Positions 1 to 19,067 of a stretch of 27,255 nt of DNA are shown one piece after another. Both the position numbers and the translations under genes were made by a program. The DNA is from a virus, in the UHGV virus genome UHGV-2078504. One strand, written 5' to 3'. Position 1 is the stretch's first letter; each line of letters begins with the position of its first letter. Below the pieces are notes generated by a model. The model was not told the origin of the DNA. It saw nothing but the letters and a program-made list of their open reading frames with translations, and ran no database searches.

Positions 1-135
<135 letters not shown>

Positions 136-334
136 TTACCGTTAAATCATTTTAAAATCAGTAAGTTGTATCGAGTTTGTATGCTTTACTGTCATTAACT
201 TACTGTATGTTGATCCAGTGTATTTAACCTTGATAAACTCAGTCCAGCAACACAAAACCGCAACACATTGCATTTTGTCCCGTAGAAAAGACTTGTATGT
301 GTGAGCTTGTTTTCTGCGCCTACGCAGATAAGGA

Positions 335-1738: not shown

Positions 1739-1935
1739 TACTGGCTGCGACATTTTTGAATAAAAGCGTCGACATTTCGGCGCTCATAACGAACTACTTT
1801 TGCACTGAAACGAATTGGTGCCAGGATAGCCCGATGACGATGCTTAATATTCCACTCACATAGCGTTTTCTGTGTAATACCTAACTTTTGGCATACTTCA
1901 TCCGGGGTGAGTAAATCGTCGGGTTTCTCGCTCAT
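1735..1935 (-). CDS. AlpA/excisionase-like small DNA-binding protein (Xis or transcriptional regulator)
   Basis: 66-aa ORF, LLTPDEVCQKLGITQKTLCEW helix-turn-helix typical of the AlpA/Xis family; sits beside the integrase and is start/stop-coupled to the upstream helicase gene. Confidence 0.7.
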   Translation of the reverse strand: MSEKPDDLLTPDEVCQKLGITQKTLCEWNIKHRHRAILAPIRFSAKVVRYERRNVDAFIQKCRSQY

Positions 1936-3326: not shown

Positions 3327-3390
3327 TAATACACCTATGGTAGAATATGTGTCAATTCTCTCTCTATATATATAACTAACGGAGGCGGGT

Positions 3391-4188
3391 ATGCCCCTGG
3401 CAAAAATACTTACAAAACAAGTTTCTTTATTAACTGTTTTTTCAGCGTTAGCTTATGCGATGGCATATTCTTTTCAGAAAGGTGTTGCATCGTATTATGG
3501 CTATCCAGCCCTTTTTATTAAAATAGATTTAAATACGCTATTGTATTCGGCTGTATGGCTTTTGTTTTTTAGTTTTTTATTTCTCGGTGCCTTATACGCG
3601 ACATTGATGTTTGATTTGAAAGGGAAATATTATGTTCCATTTATTATATTTATAGTGGTTATGCTAATACCTAATTTTTACATAATAGGATTTCATTGGC
3701 CTTTTGGTTATTTCTCCGAAACCTCTGTGATGAGTGTTGGAGATATTTTATTATTTGCTCTGCTTTTGTTGAATTACCACAATGCGGTGTCCGCGTCAAT
3801 CCATAGTAAGAGACACGAACATCATATGGATAGCATTAGAAAGTTTGGGAGGCTTGCAGAGTATAAAGACGTATTTTATTATATCGATTTAAAAATCCTA
3901 AAATCAGCTTTTCCTTTAGGGGTGATGACATTATTGATATTGAGCTATACCTTCGGGAAGGTTACTGCATTTAAAAATAACGAATATTATATGGTAGATG
4001 GTAGTAATACTAAAGTGTTGCTCAATTCATTTGGTAGTGGTTTTGTTGTTGGTGATTGTGAGTCCAATAGCGCAAAATTTGAATTTGTTAATGATTTAAA
4101 AGGGATGAAATTCACAGTTATGTCCTCTAAAAAGGAAATAGCTAAATTAAAAGAGTGTTTCGAAACACGTGTTAAAAATACGGATTAA
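3391..4188 (+). CDS. Hypothetical AT-rich membrane protein (moron; N-terminal multi-TM region plus C-terminal soluble domain)
   Basis: 265-aa ORF with GGAGG Shine-Dalgarno 5-6 nt upstream; several hydrophobic helices (VSLLTVFSALAYAMAY, LLYSAVWLLFFSFLFLGALYATLMF, VPFIIFIVVMLIPNFYIIGF, ILLFALLLLNY); strongly AT-rich compared with flanking genes; opposite strand to the surrounding operon. Confidence 0.65.
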   Translation: MPLAKILTKQVSLLTVFSALAYAMAYSFQKGVASYYGYPALFIKIDLNTLLYSAVWLLFFSFLFLGALYATLMFDLKGKYYVPFIIFIVVMLIPNFYIIGFHWPFGYFSETSVMSVGDILLFALLLLNYHNAVSASIHSKRHEHHMDSIRKFGRLAEYKDVFYYIDLKILKSAFPLGVMTLLILSYTFGKVTAFKNNEYYMVDGSNTKVLLNSFGSGFVVGDCESNSAKFEFVNDLKGMKFTVMSSKKEIAKLKECFETRVKNTD

Positions 4189-4200
4189 AGCATAAGTCTT

Positions 4201-4488
4201 TTATCTTTTATTGCGGCTTAAAATAATTTCCTCCAGATTTTTGCTATCCAGCACCACCACGGTAAAGCCCAGCTCGCGCAGCCGCTCGTGCTCGCGCAAC
4301 TGGTCGGCGCGTGGTGCTTTGCCGGGTGCTTTGCATTCAACGAAAACAAGACGGCCGCCGGGTAGCAGAACAATGCGATCCGGTACCGAGCGGCGACCGG
4401 GAGATACGAACTTAAAGGCCACACCGCCAGCCTTTTTCACTTCAGCGACGAGGTGCTTTTCGATAAGGCTCTCACGTTCATAAGACAT
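4201..4488 (-). CDS. VRR-NUC domain nuclease
   Basis: 95-aa ORF with PD-(D/E)xK-like core (PDRIVLLPGGRLVFVECKAPGK); GC-rich like the core operon; family commonly partners SNF2 helicases in phage replication modules. Confidence 0.7.
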   Translation of the reverse strand: MSYERESLIEKHLVAEVKKAGGVAFKFVSPGRRSVPDRIVLLPGGRLVFVECKAPGKAPRADQLREHERLRELGFTVVVLDSKNLEEIILSRNKR

Positions 4489-4548
4489 AAATTTGCCTTG
4501 TTAACACTTATTGGGTAGTATCAAATAAAACAAGTATAAGGAATTAAT

Positions 4549-5577
4549 ATGTCACGAATCTTATTTCCCTCTTCATGTAATCCTGAAAAGATATTTAATT
4601 TTTGCAATGAAATTGAAAAACATTCAGGTCAACAGCAAATAACAATCGATTTTTCGCATATGGGAAGGATTGAACCATTTACAATGGTTTATGTTGCTAA
4701 GCATATTCGAGACTTCCATCGAAAACAGAAAAAGAACATTGATGGTTTTAAACTTTTTTGTAGCGGGCATGAGAATAAGGATTATGCCGCAAATATGGCA
4801 TTCTTTCGAGCCTTCGGGTTAAAGCATGGCCGTGAACCGGGATGTACAGATGGAAATAATAATTTTGTTCCATTTACAATTCTTCGTGTTCAAACAGTTA
4901 TAGATGAAGCTAACGATAAATATACTGAGGTGCAAGAGATAGTTGAGGAACGATCTGGTAAATTAGCAAAGATTCTTGCTCGCCAAGAAGAAGGCGACCT
5001 CATTGATGCTTTGACATTTTCTATTAGGGAAATTATGCGTAATGTTGTGGAACATAGTGATTCAAAGGTGATTGAATATTGTGCACAGTATTGGCCTTCT
5101 TATGACCGTGTTGAAATAACAATTTCTGATAATGGTATAGGAATGAAAAAATCTCTATCGAAGAACCCTTATATAGAAGCTGATAATGATTCTGAAGCCA
5201 TTCAGTTAGCGTTAATGCCATCTATTTCTAGTAAAAATTTTAAGGGGGCGAGAATCAATACAAGAAATCCTTGGCATAATTCGGGATTTGGCCTTTATAT
5301 GATCAGCCGTATATGTAAACTTGGCGGTAGTTTTCTTATTTGTAGCGGTGACCATGCAATATATCTAGATGAACACGGAAAGAAGCATATAGAGTTAGGT
5401 CATTATCATGAAGGAACTGTCGTTAGAATGGTGTTGAATACTAAAAAACTTGGTTCCTTAAGCTCAATGCTTACGCAGTTTAAGGAGGATGGCTACAAAA
5501 TAGCTGCAGAAATAAAACATACTGGAGTTTATACAGCATCAGCTGCTTCGCAGATGTTATCTAGGGATTTTAAGTGA
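4549..5577 (+). CDS. Hypothetical protein with C-terminal GHKL/histidine-kinase-like ATPase domain (moron)
   Basis: 342-aa AT-rich ORF; C-terminal half carries N-box-like REIMRNVVEHS, G1 box ISDNGIGM and G2 box NSGFGLYMISRI characteristic of HATPase_c (histidine kinase/anti-sigma-factor kinase/GHKL) folds; N-terminal ~110 aa of unknown function. Confidence 0.7.
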   Translation: MSRILFPSSCNPEKIFNFCNEIEKHSGQQQITIDFSHMGRIEPFTMVYVAKHIRDFHRKQKKNIDGFKLFCSGHENKDYAANMAFFRAFGLKHGREPGCTDGNNNFVPFTILRVQTVIDEANDKYTEVQEIVEERSGKLAKILARQEEGDLIDALTFSIREIMRNVVEHSDSKVIEYCAQYWPSYDRVEITISDNGIGMKKSLSKNPYIEADNDSEAIQLALMPSISSKNFKGARINTRNPWHNSGFGLYMISRICKLGGSFLICSGDHAIYLDEHGKKHIELGHYHEGTVVRMVLNTKKLGSLSSMLTQFKEDGYKIAAEIKHTGVYTASAASQMLSRDFK

Positions 5578-5584
5578 CTTTGTA

Positions 5585-7648
5585 TTACTCCTTACGGTAG
5601 TGGTACGCCTCAAAGCCGCCAGCATTCAGCGGAATATCGGGTGCCCATTCGGGGTTAGTGGAGAGAAGCGCGGAAAGCGCTTTATCGTTGAAATCTTCTG
5701 TGTCAGGTGCTTCGGTGATCACCTCGTCGTGTACCGTCAGCACAATGCTGTAACCGGCATCTTCGATAAGCGGCATGTTTCCGGCCAGAATGTCGCGGGC
5801 GGCCGCCTGGGTGATGTTCTCCACCAGCTTTCCGCCGTAGGTTTTGAGTCGTTGCCATTTACGCGAATAAGAGTTAACCCCCATGTAGGTGATATTCCCT
5901 TTTTCGATAACCGGAGACGGGTAGCATACAGCGCGTCCGGATGGTAGCTGTATGCGCAGCCACGCGCCATCGCGGCGGATTTTAAGATAACCGCAATACA
6001 ATGTTTTTTGCGGTGTGGCGATTGCAGTGCGGACGGTGCGCTCCAGTTCGTACCAGAAATCACAGGTCGCGGGATGCGCCCGGCGCCAGAGACGTTTAAG
6101 TGAGTCGCAGGCGATAAATACCCGTTCAGAAAGCCCGTAGGTTGACTTGCGTTTAACCGATTCGTCGTACCAGCTTTTCGCCTCGCGGATAACATCGCGG
6201 GGAATGTTTGGTAGTGCGGCGTTCGCCAGCTCGTCGAGATCGAGACCGTAAACCAGTGCAAAAGTGATGAAGGCCGACACACCACCACCATAACCCAGAC
6301 CGAGTTCCATGACTTTACCGATCTGACGCATGTGTTTATCAACATCATCTGGTGCAATATCGAAAGCTTTTGCATACGCCAGTTTATATAAGTCCGGACC
6401 CGTTCCGGCGTCGTACTCTCTGAATGCATTCAGTTTCCATTCTTCTCCCGCCAGCCATGCCAGCATACGGCCTTCAATGTTCGACAAGTCACTTACCACC
6501 AGCTTTTTGCCTGTTGGCGCGATAATGCAGCCACGTAACGCTGAACTGGTTAGTTCCATGATATTGTCAAACAGCAGGTCTGCACATCCGGCTTTCAGTG
6601 CTTCGATGCCTTCGTCTATTTGTTCCTGTTTTAGTGAAGGGCGGGGAAGGTTCTGGGGCTGGAATAGCCGTCCGGCCCAACGACCGGTACGTGACGCCCC
6701 GCAGAACTGTAGCGTACCGCGTAAGCGCCCGTCGTGGCTTACGCCTTTCATCAGTGCCTTGTATTTACTGGTGCTGGTAGTACTGGCCTGCAGGCGGATA
6801 GCCAGCAGTTCTTTCACGGCAGATGGTAAATCGGGGTCGGCAATACGACGTTCCAGAGTACTGCGTTGCATGTCTGGTAGCTCCACACCGTAGGATTCAA
6901 CAATGTGCTTAATCAACGCGTCTCGTTGTGTGGCTGCCTGCACTTCGCCATCAGTCATTTCCTGTGTACGCTTTGCCAGGCGCTTTTGTTCCTGGTCTAC
7001 CACGTCGATCGCAGCGCGTGCGAGTTCCACGTCCATGCAGACGCCCCGGTCATTGATCTGCTGATCACGATGCCAGAGCGCCAGTTCTGTCCCCTGATAA
7101 TTCCACTTCGGCAGACGTTTATAGACTTCGCGCATTGCCTCGATATCCAGTCCGGCGTAAGCAACAAAGCGCCGCCATTCTTCCGGGTGGGTTTTGCTGG
7201 TGGCCCGGCGCAGTTTGCTGTTTTTCGGGCGTGGCTTACAGAACAGCTGGATCAGCGCTTTACCTTCTTTGTCCTTCGCTTTGTCTTGCGGGACGCCTAG
7301 TACTTCGCAGAGTTCCCCCAGAGACCCCGGGAGACCGTGCGCCAGCGCCTGCACCATTGTGTCGCGCCAACGTTCGACTGGCGGTGCTAGGCGCGGCATT
7401 GCATAACGCAGGACGGTGCGGTCGAAGTGAGAGTTATGAAAATAAAGTAGGGTTTCAGGGGCTGCGATTGCTTCGTATAAGCCGTGTGGAATACCACCAC
7501 CGGCAGTGATATCCCACACGTTTACTGGTCCGTCGTTGATAGCCCATGCGAAAAGCATCACTTCAACGCCTTCGGCATACGCATGGGTACCGTTCGTAAT
7601 AGGGATTTCGCAATAGGTTTCCAGGTCGCCCCATAGTATATTGGACAT
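5585..7648 (-). CDS. Family A DNA polymerase with N-terminal 3'-5' exonuclease domain
   Basis: 687-aa ORF; Exo I-like WGDLETYCE; polymerase motif [12 protein letters not shown], motif [13 protein letters not shown], motif C LTVHDEV. Confidence 0.85.
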
Positions 7649-7694
7649 GTGTTTACCTTGGTTTTTATTCTATTAACTGATTAAAAGATTAATT

Positions 7695-8324
7695 ATGCAT
7701 ATGATCCAATACTTGATTGACCATACAGAGCATCTGGAGAAAATAGCTGGATATATTTTTTCATGTTTGATTGTTATGGGAGTCTGGATAAGAAAGATCA
7801 TTTTTAATTATAAGTATAAAGAGCCTAAATATGTCAAGAAGTTAATTTTATATTTAATTAAGTATGAACGTTATCTGGATAAGGAGGATAAGAAAGCCAT
7901 AGAAAAAAGAATAAATGATAAAATTATTCGTGATGCGCTGAAATTGCAATCCTCTTATAACCGAAGTGATGTTATTTACATTTGCAATAGATTAGAAAAA
8001 AGACAGTATATAAATCAGTTGATTAAGCTTCAGAATTATATAGAGAAAGATAACGGAGTGTTTTTTATTAATGTTGATTTTTCAGGTTTTTTATTTATTG
8101 TTAGTCGTCTGTTTTCCTTTCTGTGTTTTGTGCTGTTTACCCTTTTTTCTATTATCTGCATTATTTCCATAGGGCAAAATGAAGGCCTTTTAAATTATCT
8201 TGTGTATATGGTTATGATAATAGTTTTAGAGACTGTTGGTTTTTGGATGTATGATACTTTCCCGTCTAAGAAAAAGATCTGTGAACTAAATAAAGAATTG
8301 AGAAAGATTAAGATTCCTGAGTGA
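7695..8324 (+). CDS. Hypothetical AT-rich membrane protein (moron)
   Basis: 209-aa, very AT-rich ORF on the opposite strand to the operon; N-terminal TM helix (IAGYIFSCLIVMGVWI), lysine-rich soluble segment, then two or three C-terminal TM helices (FLFIVSRLFSFLCFVLFTLFSIICIISIG, LVYMVMIIVLETVGFWMY). Start could be 7695 or 7701. Confidence 0.6.
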   Translation: MHMIQYLIDHTEHLEKIAGYIFSCLIVMGVWIRKIIFNYKYKEPKYVKKLILYLIKYERYLDKEDKKAIEKRINDKIIRDALKLQSSYNRSDVIYICNRLEKRQYINQLIKLQNYIEKDNGVFFINVDFSGFLFIVSRLFSFLCFVLFTLFSIICIISIGQNEGLLNYLVYMVMIIVLETVGFWMYDTFPSKKKICELNKELRKIKIPE

Positions 8325-8342
8325 TTATACGCCTAATCAGTA

Positions 8343-8361
8343 GCCCGGTGTTTAACCGGGC
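8343..8361. terminator. Stem-loop between convergent genes (possible bidirectional terminator)
   Basis: GCCCGGT-gttta-ACCGGGC perfect 7-bp inverted repeat between the end of the 7695-8324 gene and the end of the 8377-8925 gene; no clear U-tract on either strand. Confidence 0.3.
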
Positions 8362-8376
8362 GTCTATGAAGTAGGG

Positions 8377-8925
8377 TTAAATTAGTGCTTCAGCATCAGC
8401 ACCTTCGCTGATATCGTCGAAATCGTCAGCGCTTGCCACTCCGCCGCCAGCGAATGCATCGCCGTCTCGCAGGAACTGGACTCCGCCGAGTGAGGCATTA
8501 ATGCGTTTACCGAAATTATTGTCCTGTGCCCAGATATCGATAACGGCGTTTACATAGCACCCTGCATAGGGACGTCCGTCAGCCTGAATAAGTGGCGAAC
8601 GATCGCGATCAAGAACAGCTGGGCGCGCTTTGTTAGCAGCATTCAGGAAGAAATTACCGGGGAAGCCTTCATACTCTGCTTTTTCATCACCATCATGCAG
8701 GCACAGATTGAGTTTTTTCTCCAGCTGGTTATAAATGGGCTCCCACTTCTCTCCCCATTTTTCCTTCGCTACCTGCTTCATAGCTTTACGGATTTCTTCC
8801 AGTTGTGGGTGTTTGGGTGACATTAAAAATACTGCGGAGAAACGTGGATCGCCTTCGCCGTTTACAGTTTTAGCTTCAAACAGAGACGGGAAGGCCAGAC
8901 GAACATTGTTCAGCTTCAGTTTCAT
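8377..8925 (-). CDS. DUF2815-like phage protein, putative ssDNA-binding protein
   Basis: 182-aa ORF in replication module beginning MKLKLNNVRLAFPSLFE; acidic C-terminal tail ...DDFDDISEGADAEALI resembling SSB/gp2.5-type interaction tails. Family assignment is from memory. Confidence 0.55.
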   Translation of the reverse strand: MKLKLNNVRLAFPSLFEAKTVNGEGDPRFSAVFLMSPKHPQLEEIRKAMKQVAKEKWGEKWEPIYNQLEKKLNLCLHDGDEKAEYEGFPGNFFLNAANKARPAVLDRDRSPLIQADGRPYAGCYVNAVIDIWAQDNNFGKRINASLGGVQFLRDGDAFAGGGVASADDFDDISEGADAEALI

Positions 8926-8940
8926 GGGTATTTCCTTAAA

Positions 8941-10242
8941 TCAGATGAGGTCTGCGGTTAGCGTATCGTCGGATACGTCGTCGAAATCATTTACAGGGTT
9001 GATATTGAGTGCGGGGCGTGGGTCTGACTCGGGAACGACGGTGGGTTTACCATCAGCTCGTGTTATCAGTGCCTCGACTTTTGACCAACGGCGCGGACTG
9101 GCCTTTTTGATAAGTTTTTCGGCTTTTGTGGGACTAATAAGTTTAAAGTCGAATACTTCTTCAGTTTTGTACCTGAACTGGTCCTTCAGAAGTGCGCGAG
9201 CTGCCTCTTCATCACTCCAGGCCCGGTTACCTTGTTTTCCTGTTACCAGTTTAAACCCCGGTACCGGATGTCCGGCATTGAGTTCATTGTGAACCCGGTC
9301 CCGTACTGCCTTTAGCCAGGATTCAATAAAGTCGGCCTGGCTATAGATCTCCGCAAGCTGCTCAATGGTTAACAGAGGTACACGTGCGCTGGCATTGGTG
9401 ATTATTTCGCTGACAGGCTTTGTCAGATCTTCAAAGTCGCTGGCCGCTGTTTGTAAATGCTGCATTTTCTGGGCAGTGCAAATAGCTTTTGCTTTACAGA
9501 AGCGGCACTGTTTTTCTCCAGGTATGAAGTTTTCCAGCGGTAGTGTCTCAATGCCTTCGCATTCAGCAATATTGAGAACAAGGATCGCACTGGTTGCGGC
9601 CTCCTGTGCCCGTTCACCGAAAGACTGAAGTTCCTGTACGGTTAATGACCATTCTGAAACGTGGTTGAGCCTTGGCTGGTGAATAAATAATCTTACAGTC
9701 TCAAAGTCATACAGCATGCTGAATTGTTCGAGCGCACCCAGAGCATACAGTTGTAGTTGCTCATTTTGTTCTGCATCAATGCGGACGCCTTTGCCATATT
9801 TCAGGTCGTGGATTTGTAATTCGTTACCAGCGATGATTATGCCGTCGGCAGTTCCGAAAGATTCTTCCACCCCCGTTATATGTGAGAAATCAACACGTTG
9901 TTCAACCAATAGTTCATTATTCTGTGCAAGAGTCCAGACCGTATCAACATACCGGCCAACGGCTTCGACCATTTCATCATCCACCTGTGGGCCAGATGTA
10001 TTATCAGGATTTTCGCGAAGGGGGTATGAGCCGAGAAACATAGAAACATTGCATCCGGCGTAGTGTTCCGGGTGGCTTTGCCTGTTTCGTAGAACTTTTT
10101 CAGCAAGCGCGTGCGCTGCAGTGCCCTCGATTGCAAAAGTTGTTTCTTTATCCGGTTGTGTGGCCTCCAGCGCCAGACTTCCTGGGCAGCGCATCCATCG
10201 ATGCGCTGATGATGGAGAAAGTTGTGCATGAACGTCTGGCAT
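8941..10242 (-). CDS. DUF2800-like PD-(D/E)xK nuclease with Cas4-like cysteine cluster
   Basis: 433-aa ORF; N-terminal [15 protein letters not shown], nuclease-like core (IHDLKYGKG), C-terminal cysteines [10 protein letters not shown]; acidic C-terminal tail ...[15 protein letters not shown]. Confidence 0.65.
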
Positions 10243-10244
10243 GA

Positions 10245-11147
10245 TTAACCCTCCAGTGCTTTTTCAGCCAGGGTGATTACTTCAGCGAGATTTTCATCCG
10301 TTACTTCACCAAGTTTCCTGGCTCCCTGTTTTTCCAGAATTGCAATAGCTTCTGCCCGGTAACCCCCTTTTGCTAACTGGAGGATCAACCCTTCAGCTTG
10401 TTTGCGTAGTGCCGCGAAATCAATTGTATGGTCATCTTTGGCGTCATTATTCTGGCTGGAATTTGCTGCGTCTCTACGTGCAAATTCTTCCTGCAGCTGA
10501 AGGTACTCAACACGGTTGATCTCGATATGGCCTTTTTTAAGCATCTCGTTCAACTTGCGTAAGGTATGGAGTTCACTGGCTGCTGTGCCGGATACATTTT
10601 TGACGTAAAACGGCCCCGTGCGTTCTCCATCTTTGTTACTGGCCTTTTTCGGCTTAACTTCATCACGCCCATCTGCAGGTGCATCAAGTAGCTGCTCGGC
10701 AAAAGCACGTCGCTCGCCGATGGTTGGCAGGTCGTCCCAGAACTTAAGAATGTTACGGGACAGGTCCAGGAGAGCAGGTTTAAGCAGCGCCCTGGCTCGT
10801 TTGACGCCCTGTAATGCGCTGTCGAGAGCATCAATCTGAACTACTCGTTTATCGCCTTCAGCATCACGGTAGGCAACAGCACGTTGCAGCATGTCTTCTG
10901 TGATAGGGGTGGCTACCGGGTAGAAAACAGCCAGTGCGATAACGTCGCTGAACTCCAGATCATCCAGTGTCATTGCCGCTGACATGTTTTCAGCTTCAGT
11001 TGCTGTATCCCGACATTCCTGCACTCGTGAAATCGTGTCAGGATGCATAACAATACCTGATGCCATTGTGCGGATAAGACGTTCAAGCAGCGCATTATGT
11101 TGTGCTAGAAGTTGATTATTAAGTTCGAGACTGGTTTCTAAACTCAT
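10245..11147 (-). CDS. Hypothetical phage protein (early-left operon)
   Basis: 300-aa ORF tightly packed (2-nt gap) with the downstream nuclease gene; mainly helical/charged composition; no motif recognised. Confidence 0.55.
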
Positions 11148-11326
11148 ACTGTGGTCCTCGCTACAAGGAGAATGAAAGTGATGATCAGACCGAGCGCAGT
11201 GGCAACGGCCAGACCGGTCATCAAATCGAAGTTTTTACGGCGATAACGGAGAACATCGCGCCCCGTCAGTCGATGGATGTGTTCAGGTTTCATCGGTTGT
11301 ATTCCTTTTTTCATATCGGGGAGCAC
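11144..11326 (-). CDS. Small hypothetical protein with C-terminal transmembrane helix
   Basis: 60-aa ORF, 4-nt overlap (ATGA) with next gene; C-terminal hydrophobic segment LAVATALGLIITFILLVA. Short, so coding status uncertain. Confidence 0.4.
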   Translation of the reverse strand: MLPDMKKGIQPMKPEHIHRLTGRDVLRYRRKNFDLMTGLAVATALGLIITFILLVARTTV

Positions 11327-11351
11327 GCTGTTGCGAGTGCGCTTTCAGACA

Positions 11352-11378
11352 TAAAAAAGCCCGTCACTTGAGGCGGGC
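11352..11378 (-). terminator. Putative intrinsic terminator (minus strand) upstream of early-left operon
   Basis: Plus-strand AAAAAA followed by GCCCGTC-acttga-GGCGGGC hairpin; on the minus strand this reads as a stem-loop followed by a U-tract. Confidence 0.35.
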
Positions 11379-11517
11379 AAAGACTACACACAGCAATTAC
11401 ATGGATATCATCGAGTGCCTGCTTTTAACCACATCAGGCGAGGTAGTTCTCCTTGTACCCCTACAGTGAGAAATCGTCTAATATCTCTTCACCCCTACAG
11501 TTTGAGAGAGATTAGAT

Positions 11518-12087
11518 ATGTCTGAAGAAAAAGGAATTCTTTCCCGGATAACTGAATCGTTATCCGGCGTGGGAGGAGCAATTAAAAGCGCGGTTGGAGC
11601 AGCAAGAGAGATTCAGAATCTGACTGTCGACTATGCAGTTAAAGAGAAGACGCACATCTTACTCGATAAGCTAATGGATGTTCAGATGCAGCAAATGTCG
11701 CTTCAGGAGCTGCTGATTGCGGCTAAGGAGAAAATTGTTGAACTGGAAAATGAGAAAGTAAAGCAAGAGAACTGGGCCGCTGAAGCGGCGAGCTATGAAC
11801 TTTACCAGCCTATGCGGGGTACTCTGGTCTATCGCAGCAAGCTTTCTGCAGATGCTGACCAATCTCCGGTTTATATTTGTCCCAATTGCTACGAGCAAAA
11901 GAGAAAATCTATATTGCAAGCGGAAGGTCTGGTTACTAAGCCAGGCCTTGGGCGAGCCGTTAATATGGTTTGTTCGTACTGTAGGGCTTCCTATCTGTTC
12001 AACCGAAATGCTTTAGAGGCCCGACTGCCTTCTGAAGATGAAAATCCGGGGAAGGCAATCACGGATTACGATCCTTACAACCAGTAA
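11518..12087 (+). CDS. Hypothetical coiled-coil/zinc-ribbon protein (immunity-region moron)
   Basis: 189-aa ORF on opposite strand to repressor and early-left genes; central coiled-coil segment (QELLIAAKEKIVELENEKVKQEN) and CPNC...CSYC four-cysteine zinc-ribbon-like motif. Confidence 0.6.
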   Translation: MSEEKGILSRITESLSGVGGAIKSAVGAAREIQNLTVDYAVKEKTHILLDKLMDVQMQQMSLQELLIAAKEKIVELENEKVKQENWAAEAASYELYQPMRGTLVYRSKLSADADQSPVYICPNCYEQKRKSILQAEGLVTKPGLGRAVNMVCSYCRASYLFNRNALEARLPSEDENPGKAITDYDPYNQ

Positions 12088-12138
12088 TTTCTTTAAGCAT
12101 GGGTACCCTTCCGGCCACCCAGAGTTAAAGGAACTAAG

Positions 12139-12159
12139 CGCCCCATCGTCGGGGCGTTT
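12139..12159 (+). terminator. Possible terminator hairpin downstream of 11518-12087 gene
   Basis: CGCCCC-atcgtc-GGGGCG hairpin followed by TTT; short U-tract so weak. Confidence 0.3.
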
Positions 12160-12403
12160 CAACTTGCGTGACTTATCAGTTTGTCGCGGTGTTGTCCTCT
12201 ACGCTTACCGTACGCATACGGACTCGGCGCTTACCTCGATCCCATCGGGTGCTATTTCGTTTTGCCAGGAGTACTGCGGCTTACCTGTCACGCGGTTCAG
12301 TTTGTTAAAGAGCCAGTATTAAAAAACGCATTAATTATGCGATATCGTATTTATATGCGTTATGGGATTTTGTGTCAATACGAAAATGAATTATTTTGCA
12401 AAT

Positions 12404-12432
12404 AAGAAAACCGCCCTTGTGGAGAGCGGTTT
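12404..12432 (-). terminator. Putative intrinsic terminator of repressor gene (minus strand)
   Basis: AAACCGC-ccttgtggaga-GCGGTTT inverted repeat about 30 nt downstream of the cI stop; the minus-strand reading is followed by a T-rich run (TTTTCTTATTT). Confidence 0.45.
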
Positions 12433-12462
12433 GATCAGAAGTAAGTTATCAGACTGTAAAGG

Positions 12463-13137
12463 TTAGTACATACGTAGCGCGGATTTGGCGATCCCCGCCA
12501 CGTAATGGATTTTTTCAATGTTTTCGCGTGGTACTCTGACTGGTGGATGATCTTCATTTACAGACATTAGATGGAACAGGCCATCGCGTTCGAACAAGAA
12601 GGTTTTAACCATGACCTCACCTTCCCGGGTAACCACAAGTACTTCATCACCAGGAGTGTAGTCGTGGTTGGGTTCGACGATTACGAACTCCCCCTCTTTG
12701 ATTCTAGGCATCATTGAATCACCAACACATTTCAGGGCGTATGCATCTTCATCCTTTGTCGGCCAGTATATGAAACCATCACTGCTACCTACTGAATATT
12801 GGGTGTCGCTCCAAAGTCCTCCAACGCCTAGCTGAGTGTTTCCCAAAACAGGTACTTTATTAAACCTAAGAGAAATATACGTTTTTATACCTGTCGCGTC
12901 CTCTTTCTCCATTTCTTGAAGGCTCCTTTCTGCCAAGTCTATTGGTGACACGTGGAAGTAGTCGGCGATCTGCTTTAACGTTGCGTATTTCGGATCTTTC
13001 ACCTCTCCTGATACCAGCCTGTGTAGCGTTGGTTGGTTCAGCTGTAACCGACGTGCCAGCTCAGTTATCGAGCTTATCTTGGCTTTGTCCATCAGGTACT
13101 TGATGTTTTGAGAAAGGATATCGGTAGTATCAATCAT
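12463..13137 (-). CDS. cI: CI-like prophage repressor (N-terminal HTH, C-terminal S24 LexA-like autopeptidase)
   Basis: 224-aa ORF; N-terminal HTH (ITELARRLQLNQPTLHRLVSG); C-terminal S24 signature with catalytic Ser (CVGDSMMP) and Lys (EVMVKT); divergent from a Cro-like gene. Confidence 0.85.
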   Translation of the reverse strand: MIDTTDILSQNIKYLMDKAKISSITELARRLQLNQPTLHRLVSGEVKDPKYATLKQIADYFHVSPIDLAERSLQEMEKEDATGIKTYISLRFNKVPVLGNTQLGVGGLWSDTQYSVGSSDGFIYWPTKDEDAYALKCVGDSMMPRIKEGEFVIVEPNHDYTPGDEVLVVTREGEVMVKTFLFERDGLFHLMSVNEDHPPVRVPRENIEKIHYVAGIAKSALRMY

Positions 13138-13278
13138 TTGGATTCATCCATGTTGTATACAGGGACGGTGATTATGCGTTATCGGATATTTTAATCTAGG
13201 ATGACATAGAATTGCTGTATTGCTGAGTAATCCGTTTTCGTATAAATTTGCGCTATAGACGAAAGTGGAGACTTAAAT
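13138..13278. promoter_or_regulatory. Divergent PRM/PR-type promoter-operator region of the lysis-lysogeny switch
   Basis: 141-bp AT-rich intergenic region between divergent cI-like and cro-like genes; contains palindrome TGTATACA (13154-13161) and tandem TTGCTG repeats (13212-13225). Promoter/operator positions not resolved. Confidence 0.5.
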
Positions 13279-13479
13279 ATGTCCGGACTAACACCACAAG
13301 AGATGGTCAAAAGCTTGATTGATTCAGGGTATACCCAAAACCAAATTGCCGAAATTGCAGGCGTGAAGCAGTCTTCTATTAGTCGGCTTCTTACCGGGGT
13401 TCATTCTGACCCTCGCTTTTCTACAGTACGTGCGATAGAAAAACTTTTTCAGGAAGTGACAGCTAGACAAAAGGTGTAA
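13279..13479 (+). CDS. cro: Cro-like HTH transcriptional regulator
   Basis: 66-aa ORF with HTH (YTQNQIAEIAGVKQSSISRLLTG), divergent from the repressor, immediately upstream of the primase. Confidence 0.7.
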   Translation: MSGLTPQEMVKSLIDSGYTQNQIAEIAGVKQSSISRLLTGVHSDPRFSTVRAIEKLFQEVTARQKV

Positions 13480-13482
13480 CCC

Positions 13483-15669
13483 ATGTCCGATAGCAAACCA
13501 TGGGGAGCTACGCCTGATGAGTGGTTTCATTTCGACCTGGTATTGGGGCGGACTGCTCATCTTCTCCCAGTTGTATGTAACCCCAGTGCGACCATATCCC
13601 CTGATAGTAAATTGAAAGCGTTGGGTAAGACGCCGAGTCGCTATAACCGGGACCGCCAGGTCACCGGTATTGCTCAATGGACCGGGCATGTTGTTACTGA
13701 GCATGATTTTGCCCACTGGTCGAATGAACCGGATTATGGCATCTGCGTGCGTACAGGCCATGGCTGGCTGGCGCTGGACTGCGATAGCGAAGATGAAGAC
13801 ATTCAGGCAGATATTCGCAAAACACTTGTGCAACTTCTGGGTGAGTCGCCGCCGCGACGCTGGCGAGCAAACAGTAATAAGTGTCTGTATCTGCTGGCCG
13901 TTGATGGTGATTTCCGTAAGCGTATCCATCGCCTAGCGGGGGATATGGGCATTATCGAGTTGCTGGCGAACGGGCAGCAGTTCGTTGCCTGTGGTACGCA
14001 CAGCAGCGGCGCGCGTATTGAATGGGACGGTGGTTTGCCGGATGAACCTCCGGCTATTACAGGTGAGCAGCTTGAAACGCTGTGGCAGCGCCTGGCTGAA
14101 CAACTCCCTGTGTCGGTAACCACCGAAGCGGGCAACACGAAGATGCGCGACCGTTCAGCATTCACGCCCGGCGCGACGGATGATACAGCTGAATATCTTG
14201 ATGCCAATGGCTGGACGCTGCTGGATGGCGCAAACGGTGAACGATATATCCGCTGTCCGTTTGAAGACGGCCACAGTAGCGGAGGCGATCCAACAAGCAC
14301 AGTTTATTTTCCTGCGGGAACCGCAGGCTTTGAGCAGGGGCATTTTAAATGCCTGCATGCCAGTTGCGCGCATCGTGATGACGGAGATTTCCTGAATGCC
14401 ATCGGGATCCGCAACGACGATTTCGAAGATCTGACCAGCATCGAAGTGGCGGAACCTTTACCGCTGCCTGCTTTCGAGCGTGATAAATGGGGGCGTATCG
14501 AGGCAACCATCAGCAATGCAGCCAAAGCAGTAGTACGCTCTGATTTTGTGGACATCGATATTCGCTTTGACCAGTTCCGCGACGAAATCATGTTTGCCCC
14601 GGCAGGATCCGGACAATGGCGGGCATTCACCGATGCGGATTATGCGCGCCTGCGCATCACGATGGAAAAGCGGGGATTTAAACCTGTTGGCCGTGAACTT
14701 ATTCGCGATGTGGTGTTACTTGCAGCCGATGAACAACCATTCGATTCAGCGATCACCTGGCTGAACGGGCTGGAGTGGGATGGCGTGCCGCGCATCGAAT
14801 GTTTCTACCATACGCACTTCGGTACCGCCGACACGCCTTATACCCGTGCGGTGTCTATGTACATGTGGACCGCGTTGGCGGGGCGAGTACTGGAGCCAGG
14901 CATCAAAGCGGATATGGTGCCGATCCTCGTTGGTCCGCAGGGCTGCGGTAAGTCTTCCGGAGTGGAGGCACTGAGCCCTGATCCTGCGTTTTTTACTGAA
15001 ATCTCTTTTGCCGAAAAAGACGATGATCTCGCTCGAAAAATGCGTGGTCGGCTGGTGGCAGAGATTGGTGAACTGCGCGGACTTAATACCAAAGAGCTGG
15101 AGTCAATCAAAGCGTTTGTGACGCGTACTCACGAAAACTGGATCCCGAAATACCGGGAGTTCGCCACCCAGTTTCCTCGTCGCCTGGTGTTCGTTGGTAC
15201 CACTAATGAGGACGAATTCCTTGCGGACAAGACTGGTAACCGTCGCTGGCTCCCCGTGGAAGTGTCGAAAGTCGACGTGAAAGCGATAAAAAGAGATCTT
15301 CTTTTACTTTGGGCTGAGGCTCGTGAGGTGTTTCAGCGTCTGGGGGGTATCCAGTTCCGTGAGGCTGAACAACTGGCAGCGAGTGTCCATGAACAGTACA
15401 CCATCAAGGATGCTTGGCTTGAAACGGTAGAGAAATGGCTCGACACGCCCGACCTGATGACTAATGAACTTCCGCGAAATTGCGAATTTTTACGCGCAAG
15501 TGATGTTTTGCGTGATGCGATTGGGCTAAATCCTGACCGCATCGGAAAACGCGAAGAAATGCGAATTAGTAATGTTTTGCAAAATTGCGGGTATAAGCGT
15601 GCCCAAAGGCGAATTGGGGGGAAAAAATGCAAGGTTTGGGAACCGCTGGAACCACGCGGAACCACCTAG
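13483..15669 (+). CDS. Replication primase: N-terminal PrimPol-like domain fused to C-terminal P-loop (VirE/D5-like) ATPase
   Basis: 728-aa ORF; N-terminal acidic catalytic region (WLALDCDSEDED), central cysteine/histidine cluster (CPFEDGHSSG...HFKCLHASCAH), C-terminal Walker A GPQGCGKSS; followed by iterons. Confidence 0.75.
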   Translation: MSDSKPWGATPDEWFHFDLVLGRTAHLLPVVCNPSATISPDSKLKALGKTPSRYNRDRQVTGIAQWTGHVVTEHDFAHWSNEPDYGICVRTGHGWLALDCDSEDEDIQADIRKTLVQLLGESPPRRWRANSNKCLYLLAVDGDFRKRIHRLAGDMGIIELLANGQQFVACGTHSSGARIEWDGGLPDEPPAITGEQLETLWQRLAEQLPVSVTTEAGNTKMRDRSAFTPGATDDTAEYLDANGWTLLDGANGERYIRCPFEDGHSSGGDPTSTVYFPAGTAGFEQGHFKCLHASCAHRDDGDFLNAIGIRNDDFEDLTSIEVAEPLPLPAFERDKWGRIEATISNAAKAVVRSDFVDIDIRFDQFRDEIMFAPAGSGQWRAFTDADYARLRITMEKRGFKPVGRELIRDVVLLAADEQPFDSAITWLNGLEWDGVPRIECFYHTHFGTADTPYTRAVSMYMWTALAGRVLEPGIKADMVPILVGPQGCGKSSGVEALSPDPAFFTEISFAEKDDDLARKMRGRLVAEIGELRGLNTKELESIKAFVTRTHENWIPKYREFATQFPRRLVFVGTTNEDEFLADKTGNRRWLPVEVSKVDVKAIKRDLLLLWAEAREVFQRLGGIQFREAEQLAASVHEQYTIKDAWLETVEKWLDTPDLMTNELPRNCEFLRASDVLRDAIGLNPDRIGKREEMRISNVLQNCGYKRAQRRIGGKKCKVWEPLEPRGTT

Positions 15670-15828
15670 AAGAGAAGGTGGTTCCACCTTGCAGACCTTG
15701 TGGCAAGCGGGGCGGAACTACTGGAACCACTGGAACCGCCTTTCTACTAGAAACCCCATATATATATATAAGTCGATTGAGGGAAAGGTTAGGAAAAGGT
15801 GGTTCCAGGTGGGGGCAGGTGGTTCCAC
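15639..15828. repeat. Iteron cluster with central (AT)n tract: putative phage origin of replication
   Basis: At least nine copies of the core GGAACC(A/G)C or its complement GGTGGTTCC in both orientations (e.g. 15639-15644, 15648-15655, 15658-15666, 15677-15688, 15723-15730, 15732-15740, 15798-15807, 15817-15828) flanking ATATATATATATA at 15758-15771; begins inside the last codons of the primase gene. Confidence 0.55.
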
Positions 15829-15957
15829 TCCGAATTAGCAACTTTTTGCATGTTGATACATGCAATATGCGGATCGGAACTGCGTTATCCACACCCACGG
15901 ATAAACAGACGTAGTTCTCAGAAAAATTTTTCGTAGCAAAACGTAGAGGTCAGAGCT

Positions 15958-16392
15958 ATGCGTAATATTCAACAGGTTTTAGAGCGCTGGGGTGGATGGG
16001 CTGCCGATAGCAACACCACAGTGAGCTGGGCTCCAATAGCGGCGGGATTTAAAGGGCTGGTAGTCAGCAGCTCGCCTGGCAGGCTGAGTTGCTGTGACGA
16101 CGATGGCCTGATTATCGATGCTTGCGTCTGTCGGCTGCAGCAGGTCCGTAAGCCTGAGGAACTGGACGTCATTATGCTGTACTACGTCTACGGGTTAAGC
16201 AAACGTGAGATAGGGCGGCGGCGTCGCTGTTCTGAAGGATTTATCCGCCAGCAGTTGCAGGTAGCAGAGGGATTCATTGAGGGGTGTCTCTGCATGCTGG
16301 GTGTGAGCCTTCAGATGGATCCTGAGGTCGAAATTCAAAGGGATGAAAAAAGTATTAGTGCGCTACGCAAAAACTGCGCTACGCTGGTATGA
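15958..16392 (+). CDS. Q: Late-gene antitermination protein Q
   Basis: 144-aa ORF beginning MRNIQQVLERWGGWAA with cysteine cluster (CCDDDGLIIDACVC), resembling lambdoid Q-family antiterminators as recalled; located directly upstream of the lysis cassette. Confidence 0.7.
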   Translation: MRNIQQVLERWGGWAADSNTTVSWAPIAAGFKGLVVSSSPGRLSCCDDDGLIIDACVCRLQQVRKPEELDVIMLYYVYGLSKREIGRRRRCSEGFIRQQLQVAEGFIEGCLCMLGVSLQMDPEVEIQRDEKSISALRKNCATLV

Positions 16393-16670
16393 GTTGAATT
16401 TCTGACCTCAACGAAGAGCTCCAAATCATTGGGGCTTTTTTAATGCTCTATTCTCAGTAAAAGTTAATAAAACAGGGTTTTCGTCGCGAAAAAACGCTAT
16501 GCAGTTTTTGCCCTTTTTTATGCACCTTTTATTCACTCGAATTTCGTCATTCTGGACCACTTAAGTTGATTAAATAGGCCTTTCATCGCAAATCTATTGC
16601 GAGCGGTGATCGTGTGGTTCCTATAACGTACATTATGTTAAATAACTTCCTTTTTTAACAAATTTAACAA
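16393..16670 (+). promoter_or_regulatory. Expected Q-dependent late promoter/qut region (position not resolved)
   Basis: By analogy with lambda PR'/qut lying just downstream of Q; long AT-rich non-coding stretch between Q and the holin. No promoter elements confidently identified. Confidence 0.3.
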
Positions 16671-16694
16671 GGTTCGCTATGGCGAACTTTTTTT
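16671..16694 (+). terminator. Putative intrinsic terminator (tR'-like) in late leader
   Basis: GGTTCGC-tat-GGCGAAC hairpin followed by TTTTTTT. Confidence 0.4.
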
Positions 16695-16795
16695 GTATTC
16701 AGGGCCCACCGAAGGACGGCTCATAACCCAATCCTACGGGCGTATACGCAGGGCCCGCCTTTCAACAACACCCCGTAATGGCGGAGGTGGGAAGT

Positions 16796-17137
16796 ATGAA
16801 AATGCACAATGCTCCTCATTCCTGGCCTGACTTACTGGAACTCTTACAAAGTTGGTGGCGTGGAGATACGCCGTTGGGCGCAGTGGTTATGTCAATTGTT
16901 ATGGCTGGCTTGCGCATTGCCTATTTTGGCGGTGGCGGCGGCTGGAAACGAAAAACGCTTGAGATTTTGCTCTGTGGTGCTCTGACGCTGACCTTTGCAT
17001 CCGCTCTTGAGTATGTTGGATGGCCTAAATCTCTTTCTGTTGCCATTGGTGGTGGTGTTGGGCTGATCGGTGTCGATGCTATTCGTGGGGCTGCAATGCG
17101 AGTAATCGGTAACAAGTTTGGTGGCTCTAAGGAGTAA
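16796..17137 (+). CDS. Holin (probable dual-start motif MKM)
   Basis: ORF with three hydrophobic segments immediately upstream of the endolysin; GGAGGTGGG Shine-Dalgarno precedes ATG-AAA-ATG (16796 and 16802), reminiscent of the lambda S dual-start arrangement. The longest ORF starts at 16778. Confidence 0.7.
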   Translation: MKMHNAPHSWPDLLELLQSWWRGDTPLGAVVMSIVMAGLRIAYFGGGGGWKRKTLEILLCGALTLTFASALEYVGWPKSLSVAIGGGVGLIGVDAIRGAAMRVIGNKFGGSKE

Positions 17138-17140
17138 TTC

Positions 17141-17617
17141 ATGCAGACACTAAATTCCCAACGTAAAGCTTTCCTGGATATGGTGGCATGGTCAGAAGGA
17201 ACGGATAACGGGCGACAACCGACACGTAATCACGGTTATGACGTTATCGTCGGAGGTGAGTTGTTCACTGATTACTCCGATCACCCTCGCAAACTTGTCA
17301 CGCTAAACCCGAAGCTTAAATCAACAGCTGCAGGCCGGTATCAGCTTCTTTCACGCTGGTGGGATGCCTACCGCAAGCAGCTTGGCCTGAAAGATTTTTC
17401 GCCAGAAAATCAGGACGCTGTGGCGCTGCAGCAGATTAAAGAGCGTGGCGCTTTACCGATGATTGACCGTGGCGATATTCGTCAGGCAATCGACCGTTGC
17501 AGCAATATCTGGGCGTCGTTACCTGGTGCAGGTTACGGTCAGTATGAACATAAAATCGGTGACCTGATTTCCAGGTTTAAAGATGCTGGTGGGGTGGTAA
17601 ATGAAGCTGACTTATAA
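17141..17617 (+). CDS. R: Endolysin, lambda R-type lytic transglycosylase
   Basis: 158-aa product is near-identical over most of its length to phage lambda R as recalled (NSQRKAFLDMVAWSEGTDNGRQPTRNHGYDVIVGGELFTDYSDHPRKLVTLNPKLKST...). Confidence 0.9.
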   Translation: MQTLNSQRKAFLDMVAWSEGTDNGRQPTRNHGYDVIVGGELFTDYSDHPRKLVTLNPKLKSTAAGRYQLLSRWWDAYRKQLGLKDFSPENQDAVALQQIKERGALPMIDRGDIRQAIDRCSNIWASLPGAGYGQYEHKIGDLISRFKDAGGVVNEADL

Positions 17618-18125
17618 GATTGTCATCGCGGCATTTTTCTTCTCTGTCTTTGGGGCGCTCGTCTGGTCTGCAAACCATTACCACAGCAAGTATCAGGCAG
17701 AAAAGTTGCGGGCTGATAAAGCGGAAGGTGAAGCTGAATATCAAGGGAAAGTGATAGCTAATCAGGCATTAAACTTCAATCGTTTTAACCAGATAGCAGA
17801 AAACGCAAGCCGATTAAATTCTCTGGTCGACATCGATCACGAGAAGACAGTCATCAAATACCGTGAGGTTCTGCTCCGTGAAAAGAACTGTGATTTCCCT
17901 GTTCCTGTTGATATTGCTGTCGGGTTGCTCAACTACGCGAACCGTTTACGCGCCAGCGCATTGCACGCCGATTCCGGGGACATTGACTCAGTCGGTGATC
18001 GTGCCACTACCACCAGAACGTTGACATATTGCCAGGCTGTTCTGTGGATTAACCCACTGTTGGCAGCCATCGAGAAGGCGAATAACCAGTTGGCTGGTGT
18101 CCGACAAATAGAACAGTCCCGGTAA
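17601..18125 (+). CDS. Rz: Rz-like inner-membrane spanin (i-spanin)
   Basis: 174-aa ORF overlapping the endolysin stop, N-terminal TM helix (IVIAAFFFSVFGALVWS) then coiled-coil periplasmic domain; contains an embedded +1-frame lipoprotein ORF. Confidence 0.75.
   Translation: MKLTYKIVIAAFFFSVFGALVWSANHYHSKYQAEKLRADKAEGEAEYQGKVIANQALNFNRFNQIAENASRLNSLVDIDHEKTVIKYREVLLREKNCDFPVPVDIAVGLLNYANRLRASALHADSGDIDSVGDRATTTRTLTYCQAVLWINPLLAAIEKANNQLAGVRQIEQSR
17878..18024 (+). CDS. Rz1: Rz1-like outer-membrane lipoprotein spanin (o-spanin), embedded in Rz in the +1 frame
   Basis: Hand translation from GTG 17878: (M)KRTVISLFLLILLSGCSTTRTVYAPAHCTPIPGTLTQSVIVPLPPER, stop TGA 18022-18024; lipobox LLSGC, proline-rich mature part; GAGG 9 nt upstream. 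Confidence 0.6.
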   Translation: MKRTVISLFLLILLSGCSTTRTVYAPAHCTPIPGTLTQSVIVPLPPER

Positions 18126-18186
18126 TAGCATTACAGAAGCTCTTCCAGGAGGGGCTTCGATAATGACCTGATAACTGGAAAATAAA

Positions 18187-18759
18187 ATGACTAAGAAGCT
18201 GAAAGCAAAACACGAGGTGTTTTGTCGCGAGTTTCTTGTCGATCTGAATGCTACACAAGCAGCTATTCGCGCAGGCTATGCCTCCAGGCGAGCACATGTT
18301 ACGGGGGCTGAACTATATGGTAAACCTGAGATACGCGCCCGCATTAACGAGCTAAAGCAGGAGCGTATTGATCAACTGGGCATTGATGCGAATTATGTGC
18401 TAATGCGACTGGTTGAGATCGACAGGCTCGATGTGGCTGACATCCTGGAGGACGATTTAAGTATTAAGCCTCTGTCTGCGTGGCCGGAATCGTGGCGTCG
18501 GTACCTGAGTGGATTTAACCTCGCTGAAATGTTTGAGGGGCGAGGAGATGACAGAGAAATGGTCGGGCTCCTTAAAAAGATTAAGTGGCCTGATAAGGTT
18601 AAAAACCTTGAGTTGCTTGGGCGCCATGTTTCTGTTCAGGCGTTTAAAGACAACGTCAAAAATGAAGTGACTGGCGCTGATGGAGGACCAGTCAGAACAG
18701 AAATTACCAACTTAACGCCGGAGCAGGCTGCAGAGGCGTATAGAAAAATGATGGGGTGA
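18187..18759 (+). CDS. terS: Terminase small subunit
   Basis: 190-aa ORF with N-terminal FCREFLVDLNATQAAIRAGY motif typical of terminase small subunits; precedes the large subunit. Confidence 0.75.
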   Translation: MTKKLKAKHEVFCREFLVDLNATQAAIRAGYASRRAHVTGAELYGKPEIRARINELKQERIDQLGIDANYVLMRLVEIDRLDVADILEDDLSIKPLSAWPESWRRYLSGFNLAEMFEGRGDDREMVGLLKKIKWPDKVKNLELLGRHVSVQAFKDNVKNEVTGADGGPVRTEITNLTPEQAAEAYRKMMG

Positions 18760-18784: not shown

Positions 18785-18997
18785 TTAGGCTTGCTTTGGT
18801 CGAGTAATTCGGCCAAGAGCTTTAATTGCAGCGACTTTGACGTTGTGATTTAAGTCTGAAGATAAAGCAAGTAAGCGATTTACATGAGCTGGCGTTGCTG
18901 AAGCACTTTCACCGAGAGCATAAATTGCAGACAATTTTACTTCGTTGTTAAGGTCGTTGGTTAATTCCAACAACTTAGCACTAACTGCTGGTGTCAT
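18785..18997 (-). CDS. Small AT-rich hypothetical protein with HEAT-like repeats, antisense between terS and terL
   Basis: Strong AGGAGG Shine-Dalgarno 4 nt upstream of the ATG at 18995-18997 (minus strand); 70-aa product MTPAVSAKLLELTNDLNNEVKLSAIYALGES...LNHNVKVAAIKALGRI has two HEAT/PBS-lyase-like repeat units. The longer ORF to 19045 is probably not the start. Confidence 0.5.
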   Translation of the reverse strand: MTPAVSAKLLELTNDLNNEVKLSAIYALGESASATPAHVNRLLALSSDLNHNVKVAAIKALGRITRPKQA

Positions 18998-19067
18998 AAA
19001 ACCTCCTGTAATTGGTACATAAACACTATCAACTTTGTTACGCAAAAACTCAATGCCTGGAATTGTT

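Follow-up and report, generated by a model that had tools for sequence, protein, structure and literature searches.

[quoted passage not shown] (Nature 651:1060-1067, 2026), which is said to include the Rip1 of a Pseudomonas aeruginosa prophage. Summaries of Rip1 are given in passages of a review (PMC13434031), a research paper (PMC13601566) and a meeting report (PMC12908700). In these sources, Rip1 homologues are described as single prophage-encoded proteins that are harmless alone, that are widespread in Proteobacteria, chiefly in prophages, and that are reported to defend against heterologous phages (PMC13434031). [quoted passage not shown] The N-terminal amphipathic helix is presented there as the pore and the C-terminal half as the ring contact; the complex permeabilises membranes, which leaves the infected cell dead ahead of phage maturation.

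Two other systems are close in position or lifestyle to the gene that is described here. SieB of phages λ and P22 (PF14163) is expressed from the prophage, as described for P22 (PMC10461980), and aborts infection midway through the lytic cycle. Like our gene it occupies the slot downstream of PL and lies antisense to the early-left operon. P22 protects itself against its SieB by means of Esc and the sas antisense RNA, whereas no such device is evident at our locus. Tab (tail assembly blocker) of Pseudomonas phage JBD26 is also a small moron; it lies on the minus strand and is expressed by the prophage from a promoter of its own, but it has only 83 aa, was reported to be without similarity to known proteins, blocks tail assembly via the tape-measure protein and not by a pore, and has a cognate anti-Tab. 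The Tab slot of JBD26 is the site that carries rip1 in phage D3112 (PMC10884400).

The DNA analysed here is a stretch of 27,255 nt (UHGV virus genome UHGV-2078504, hereafter the window), which represents an E. coli prophage integrated beside yfhL. Its open reading frame (ORF) at 11518-12087 is a clear homologue of Rip1; sequence, fold and domain anatomy together establish that it belongs to this family. It probably encodes a Rip1-type single-protein abortive-infection defence that is carried as a moron of this prophage.

The ORF product and its relation to Rip1

The reading frame and the parts of its product are as follows.

11518-12087, plus strand: rip1-family ORF of 189 aa, intact, with the ATG at 11518 and the stop codon ending at 12087
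11521-11619, plus strand: N-terminal amphipathic helix, aa 2-34, from the AlphaFold model
11632-11787, plus strand: coiled-coil helix, aa 39-90, a continuous helix in the AlphaFold model
11794-12003, plus strand: beta-rich four-Cys zinc-ribbon domain, aa 93-162, from the AlphaFold model and the motif
11878-11889, plus strand: zinc-ribbon motif CPNC, aa 121-124
11971-11982, plus strand: zinc-ribbon motif CSYC, aa 152-155
aa 167-189, plus strand: low-confidence C-terminal tail of the AlphaFold model

A first-pass annotation, made from the DNA sequence, had described a 189-aa plus-strand ORF with a coiled-coil segment and a CPNC…CSYC zinc ribbon, encoded opposite the repressor. The ORF is present exactly as described and converges with the repressor gene at 12463-13137 on the minus strand. 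The start codon at 11518 is supported because homologues conserve the N-terminus MS(E/D)EKGI. The coiled coil was borne out by the modelled helix of aa 39-90 and by a heptad register in which 73% of the a/d positions are hydrophobic. The zinc ribbon held as well: in an alignment of 108 family sequences all four cysteines (C121, C124, C152 and C155) are invariant, together with Y93, and conservation reaches 90% or more at W86, L95, Y105, S131, L133 and Q134, the last three forming an S-x-LQ motif. The pLDDT of the model was 85.8 with the 108 sequences and 69.0 with 11. The N-terminal helix is rich in Gly, Ala and Ser and has a hydrophobic moment of about 0.44 at a mean hydrophobicity of about 0.2. 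A transmembrane segment was not detected in the ORF product (maximal Kyte-Doolittle hydropathy over 19 residues, 0.86), and HK446 Rip1 has the same profile.

Structure prediction and remote homology had been suggested as a check by the first-pass annotation, and both, when run, lead to Rip1 in PDB entry 9oox. According to its Foldseek title this is the cryo-EM structure of Escherichia phage HK446 Rip1 bound to the T6 small terminase. The Rip1 chain is HK446 gp37, since translated gp37 matches it over the aligned residues 3-162. A phmmer comparison of the ORF with 9oox_L gave an E-value of 3.5e-47 (aa 3-166 against 3-162), the family profile matched the same Rip1 at 2e-48, and tblastn placed HK446 gp37 at 52-53% identity to the ORF (HK446/ev099). 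The AlphaFold model superimposes on 9oox_M with a target-normalised TM-score of 0.89 and an rmsd of 2.1 Å over 128 columns (E 3.5e-10), and 9oox was the sole significant match in the Foldseek search of the PDB.

The shared anatomy consists of the N-terminal amphipathic helix, the long coiled-coil helix and the C-terminal four-Cys zinc-ribbon domain. Identity to HK446 Rip1 is unevenly distributed over these parts, with 64% in the N-terminal helix, 54% in the coiled coil and 46% in the zinc-ribbon domain. This pattern would fit a conserved effector (pore) end and a diversifying, faster-diverging sensor end. Since the sensor half is only 46% identical, the trigger range of this allele may differ from that of its relative. 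Another difference is that the C-terminal tail is 22 aa longer than in HK446 Rip1 and ends in DYDPYNQ. The tail, which extends 34 aa past the second CxxC, was considered as a distinguishing feature and dismissed, as variable tails are common and their family median is 23 aa.

The two genes agree in being prophage-borne single genes that lie antisense to their neighbours behind the same upstream promoter region. HK446 gp37, the closest characterised relative, is encoded opposite to ral and N in the interval between them, a position and orientation that match those of sieB in λ. The setting differs in that the phage studied here is temperate, has a replication module of the Enc34-like type and is neither a lambdoid phage nor a Casadabanvirus, and in that the gene sits between PL and the early-left operon instead of between ral and N or between terS and terL. 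The first-pass annotation had proposed an exclusion or defence gene in a slot of the rexAB/sieB type. This proposal is supported by the homology to Rip1, by the position of the HK446 gene and by the homology of the upstream region to the sieB promoter. A defence role is thus supported, by analogy with the described homologues.

The family to which the ORF belongs is large. A word-indexed search returned only 16 close relatives, and it was the exhaustive profile search that revealed 3,430 clusters at 50% identity with E ≤ 1e-3, or 2,053 with E ≤ 1e-10, the proteins being 150-175 aa long. Searches of Pfam, NCBIfam and PADLOC with the ORF gave no significant match, and in PHROGs only the unnamed family phrog_1244 was found. 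PADLOC-DB v2 (2023), a release older than the description of Rip1, contained no match at E ≤ 1. HkaP of HK620 and HK630, annotated as 'putative superinfection exclusion protein', belongs to the same family (29% identity, tblastn E 2e-7, phrog_1244) and shares the upstream promoter region and antisense placement of the ORF. It is a much more divergent allele, and its annotated function was guessed from position alone. The ORF itself recurs with 97-100% conservation in four isolated phages and in about 49 (about 1%) of the 5,426 complete E. coli genomes.

The accessory cassette and its predicted sieB-type promoter

The prophage is well represented among sequenced relatives. Positions 1-18755 of the window are 99.9% identical to a prophage in NZ_CP180607.1, and the ORF locus is 98.4% identical in four isolated phages of the vB_EcoM-6xxRx series. 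Because these near-identical, gene-bearing phages were isolated as virions, the ORF cannot be a block to the phage that carries it. In this phage the Enc34-like replication module (DUF2800, DUF2815, PolA and prim-pol/VapE) belongs to an early-left operon on the minus strand, and there are also a cro-like gene, Q, packaging genes and a complete holin/endolysin/Rz lysis cassette. The elements at and upstream of the ORF are listed below.

11407-12138, no strand assigned: accessory cassette of 732 bp (promoter, ORF and 51 nt), with limits taken from a gene-less relative
11415-11517, plus strand: sieB-type promoter/control region, from alignment to the P22 record
11454-11459, plus strand: predicted -35 element TGTACC, transferred from P22
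11479-11484, plus strand: predicted -10 element TAATAT, transferred from P22
about 11491, plus strand: predicted RNA start, transferred from P22, giving a 27-nt leader
about 11505-11511, plus strand: Shine-Dalgarno-like GAGAG
11457-11467 (over the -35 element) and 11491-11501 (at +1), plus strand: two exact copies of the 11-nt direct repeat ACCCCTACAGT

The unit that carries the gene is the 732-bp cassette, because sister prophages in which the gene is missing or swapped bound it. In a relative that lacks rip1, homology extends up to 11406 and resumes from 12139, and a second relative lacks the gene entirely. ETEC H10407 has a 174-aa allele, 45% identical to the ORF product, in the same site, with flanks that are 93-100% identical as far as 11555 and again from 12127. 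Among otherwise near-identical prophages, the site can thus be empty of Rip1 or be occupied by different alleles of it. In sister prophages without rip1 the slot holds an unannotated 64-aa CxxC…CxxC ORF (L010 2811-3005 and L008 4311-4505, minus strand), which is oriented with the early-left operon.

In every phage context examined (eight), the family gene lies antisense to the flanking operon and is opposed to its neighbour on either side. The contexts are:

this window and a distant relative (L014)
HK446, between ral and N
HK620 and HK630
a Yersinia lambdoid remnant, adjoining N
a Photorhabdus prophage, just upstream of terS
Pseudomonas phage D3112, between the small-terminase-like orf24 and terL
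Rhodobacter phage RcWaterboi

Upstream of the ORF, 105 nt are conserved at about 82-87% identity in the rip1 loci of HK446, HK620, Yersinia and Photorhabdus, even where the proteins share only 29% identity. The same upstream sequence precedes the unrelated sieB genes of λ (L016 1376-1482) and P22 (L017 1500-1607). Its identity is 85% to the P22 stretch for which the RefSeq record annotates a sieB promoter at 29690-29720 and an RNA start site of sieB at 29727. Since the upstream region aligns with this annotated promoter and start, the ORF transcript probably begins near 11491. The homology to the sieB promoter is also the best available argument for expression in the lysogen, which we infer on this basis. 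The -35 element of the proposed promoter is poor, and scans with a promoter consensus did not call the sieB-type promoter.

A repeat-rich control region upstream of the gene was part of the first-pass annotation, and it was recovered as the two exact 11-nt repeats. Judged within the window alone such repeats are weak evidence. Among eight sieB/rip1 loci, however, neither TACCCCTACAG repeat varies, which speaks against a chance feature. The heptamer TACCCCT fits TACYYMT, which we take to be the consensus of the NarL heptamer, and this is noted as a candidate lead. The possibility that the upstream region acts as a structured RNA leader was dropped, as the covariation term of RNAalifold was positive and lent such a structure no support. 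In view of this result the region is treated as a promoter/operator that acts at the DNA level.

The homologous promoter region with its two TACCCCTACAG repeats could suggest that the ORF is a sieB gene. This was rejected. The ORF has no PF14163 match at E ≤ 0.1, where λ and P22 SieB score 1e-29 and 4e-29, and hhalign of the Rip1 profile against λ SieB gave a probability of 0.2%. The proteins are unrelated, and the shared slot and promoter do not amount to family membership.

An 86-aa HEAT-repeat ORF (18785-19045, minus strand; Pfam HEAT_2, E 3.7e-8) lies between terS (18187-18759) and terL, the moron slot that in Pseudomonas phages is taken by Tab and Rip1. The prophage in NZ_CP180607.1, although 99.9% identical otherwise, lacks this ORF. 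Three more ORFs, on the plus strand, are antisense to the early-left operon in which they lie: 3391-4188 (265 aa, no family), 4549-5577 (342 aa, HATPase_c, phrog_3364, with a weak PADLOC match to DrmA) and 7695-8324 (209 aa, phrog_10579). The slots of these three look like defence-gene hotspots because relatives carry TIR-like, SIR2 or Band_7 genes there.

Predicted early-left transcription and the flanking hairpins

The following elements lie between the ORF and the repressor and on both sides of the cassette.

12463-13137, minus strand: gene of a CI/LexA-type prophage repressor (HTH and Peptidase_S24), convergent with the ORF
12408-12432, minus strand: intrinsic terminator of the repressor transcript
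12350-12378, minus strand: predicted PL, with TTGACA at 12378-12373, a 17-nt spacer and TATAAA at 12355-12350
12336-12347 and 12354-12365: operator-like motif TATGCG(A/T)TATCG, overlapping the predicted PL
13173-13184: the same operator-like motif, between the repressor and cro genes
12136-12160, plus strand: GC-rich hairpin in the prophage backbone just outside the cassette, without a U-tract
11349-11406, minus strand: RprA-like 3' module with the seed-like AAUUGCUGUGUGUAGUCUUUGCCC, a terminator hairpin at 11378-11352 and U6, and a weak extension to 11462

The promoter TTGACA-17-TATAAA was read directly off the minus strand and is near-consensus; the consensus scan missed it because it demands a T at position 6 of the -10 element. 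We predict that this is a strong, repressor-controlled early-left promoter, PL/OL. Its transcript would cross a leader at 12139-12313 and then run antisense through the ORF. In the same way pL crosses hkaP in HK620 and sieB in λ and P22. Antisense damping of rip1 upon induction would be a plausible form of self-protection. The leader at 12139-12313 is a 175-nt non-coding segment downstream of the predicted PL that is 97.7% conserved in a hetero-immune relative. It is free of ORFs, is not matched by Rfam and does not fold significantly, and for the PL leader at 12127-12345 (minus strand) folding was no better than that of shuffled sequences (z 0.77). An antitermination element is one possibility for this leader.

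Hairpins had been noted on both sides of the ORF in the first-pass annotation. Both exist, but neither belongs to the cassette, and the upstream one acts on the minus strand. The downstream hairpin (12136-12160) is stable on the plus strand, with z = -3.84 for the fold of the 3'UTR, and is also conserved in relatives that lack rip1. It may stop the plus-strand transcript as a weak terminator, or act as a barrier to it. The upstream hairpin (11352-11378) is a minus-strand intrinsic terminator followed by T6, and it forms the 3' end of the RprA-like element.

Against Rfam RF00034 this element reaches 49.3 bits, where the gathering score is 70. A 24-nt segment, AAUUGCUGUGUGUAGUCUUUGCCC, is identical to the RprA consensus, and a 46-nt stretch is 84.8% identical to the annotated chromosomal rprA, which is present in essentially all E. 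coli genomes. The 76-nt prophage version occurs in 149 of the 5,426 complete E. coli genomes. It is kept in relatives without rip1 and thus belongs to the backbone, where it separates the cassette from the early-left operon. In the distant relative (L014) the RprA-like seed is kept and the terminator stem is different yet paired. Erwinia N4-like phages contain a 47-nt match at 83%. An origin as an attP core from integration into rprA was considered and discarded: in chromosomal prophages the region is uninterrupted, and the integrase and junction adjoin yfhL. The transcript from the predicted PL would have to pass the element, which could be a phage sRNA, a module that binds Hfq or, between PL and the left operon, a regulated terminator.

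A wider proposal, which we regard as speculative and rather doubtful, would combine these features. The 732-bp unit of sieB promoter and effector would be a portable cassette whose repeats bind a host factor and which carries interchangeable, unrelated abortive-infection effectors (SieB and diverse Rip1 alleles) in λ, P22, HK446, HK620, Yersinia and Photorhabdus prophages. Here it would have moved into a non-lambdoid phage, and antisense transcription from PL would provide self-immunity of the resident. The RprA look-alike would then be a genuine phage small RNA or a regulated terminator that ties early-left transcription to the host Hfq/RprA network.

Possible roles of the ORF product

Three other roles can be considered besides defence. 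The Rip1 fold could serve the resident phage, with its own terminase or portal rings timing or assisting lysis, or with an exclusion of close relatives like that by SieB. Such a role would be in line with the sieB-type promoter in front of the ORF, and the ring proteins are indeed encoded by the resident (terS at 18187-18759 and a portal gene downstream). We nevertheless consider it unlikely: sister prophages can do without rip1, the gene always runs antisense to lytic operons, unlike the arrangement of lysis genes, the phage already has a complete holin/endolysin/Rz cassette, and the homologues are reported as defences against heterologous phages. There is also a slim chance that the ORF, although intact, is a decaying moron that has lost its defence function in this lineage. 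The weak -35 element of the proposed promoter would agree with decay. The high conservation of the intact ORF in E. coli genomes and isolated phages does not, nor does the fact that all family-invariant residues and both promoter repeats are retained.

A zinc-ribbon nucleic-acid-binding regulator, which could be an Ogr/Delta-like activator, an anti-repressor or an autoregulator that acts on the TACCCCTACAG repeats, is a very improbable identity for the ORF product. The four-Cys zinc ribbon and the location in the immunity region may evoke such a protein, and a few family members have weak, sub-threshold matches to Pfam zinc ribbons, one of them to Ogr_Delta. The whole-length match of the ORF, however, is to a pore-forming defence protein. 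Homology to a phage replication or regulatory protein, named in the first-pass annotation as a finding that would speak against defence, was looked for and not found, and no regulator family of Pfam, NCBIfam or PHROGs matches the ORF. The repeats cannot be a Rip1-specific operator because the same TACCCCTACAG repeats precede the unrelated SieB. The alternative of a regulatory protein, which the annotation had also offered, is thus not supported.

For the preferred Rip1-type defence, the following course of events can be proposed. In the lysogen the CI-type repressor would silence PL and PR, and the ORF would be transcribed from its own sieB-type promoter (start at about 11491), so that Rip1 accumulates in a soluble and harmless form. 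Late in the infection by a foreign phage, ring oligomers would be made, either the 11-mer of the small terminase or the 12-mer of the portal. The C-terminal zinc-ribbon half of Rip1 would bind around the foreign ring, and about 12 copies would assemble. This would bring the N-terminal amphipathic helices together to form a pore in the inner membrane. The cell would be permeabilised and die before virions mature, by which sister lysogens are protected. The trigger, stoichiometry, pore formation and defence phenotype in this scheme are taken from the literature on homologues, and which rings trigger this allele may be particular to it. Upon induction of the resident prophage, the derepressed PL (12350-12378) would transcribe antisense across the ORF and dampen its expression.

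The Rip1 family was already known, and the ORF adds a member to it, not a new kind of gene; the understanding of how such systems work is unchanged. What the analysis contributes is that the cassette shares the sieB promoter, that alleles replace one another at a single site and that a non-lambdoid phage has acquired the cassette. It should be useful for the annotation of prophage immunity regions and for picking Rip1 alleles for specificity studies, in a wider family that has thousands of members and is still without a name in Pfam, NCBIfam, PHROGs and PADLOC. For E. coli, it gives a likely function to a "hypothetical protein" that is encoded in about 1% of the complete genomes.
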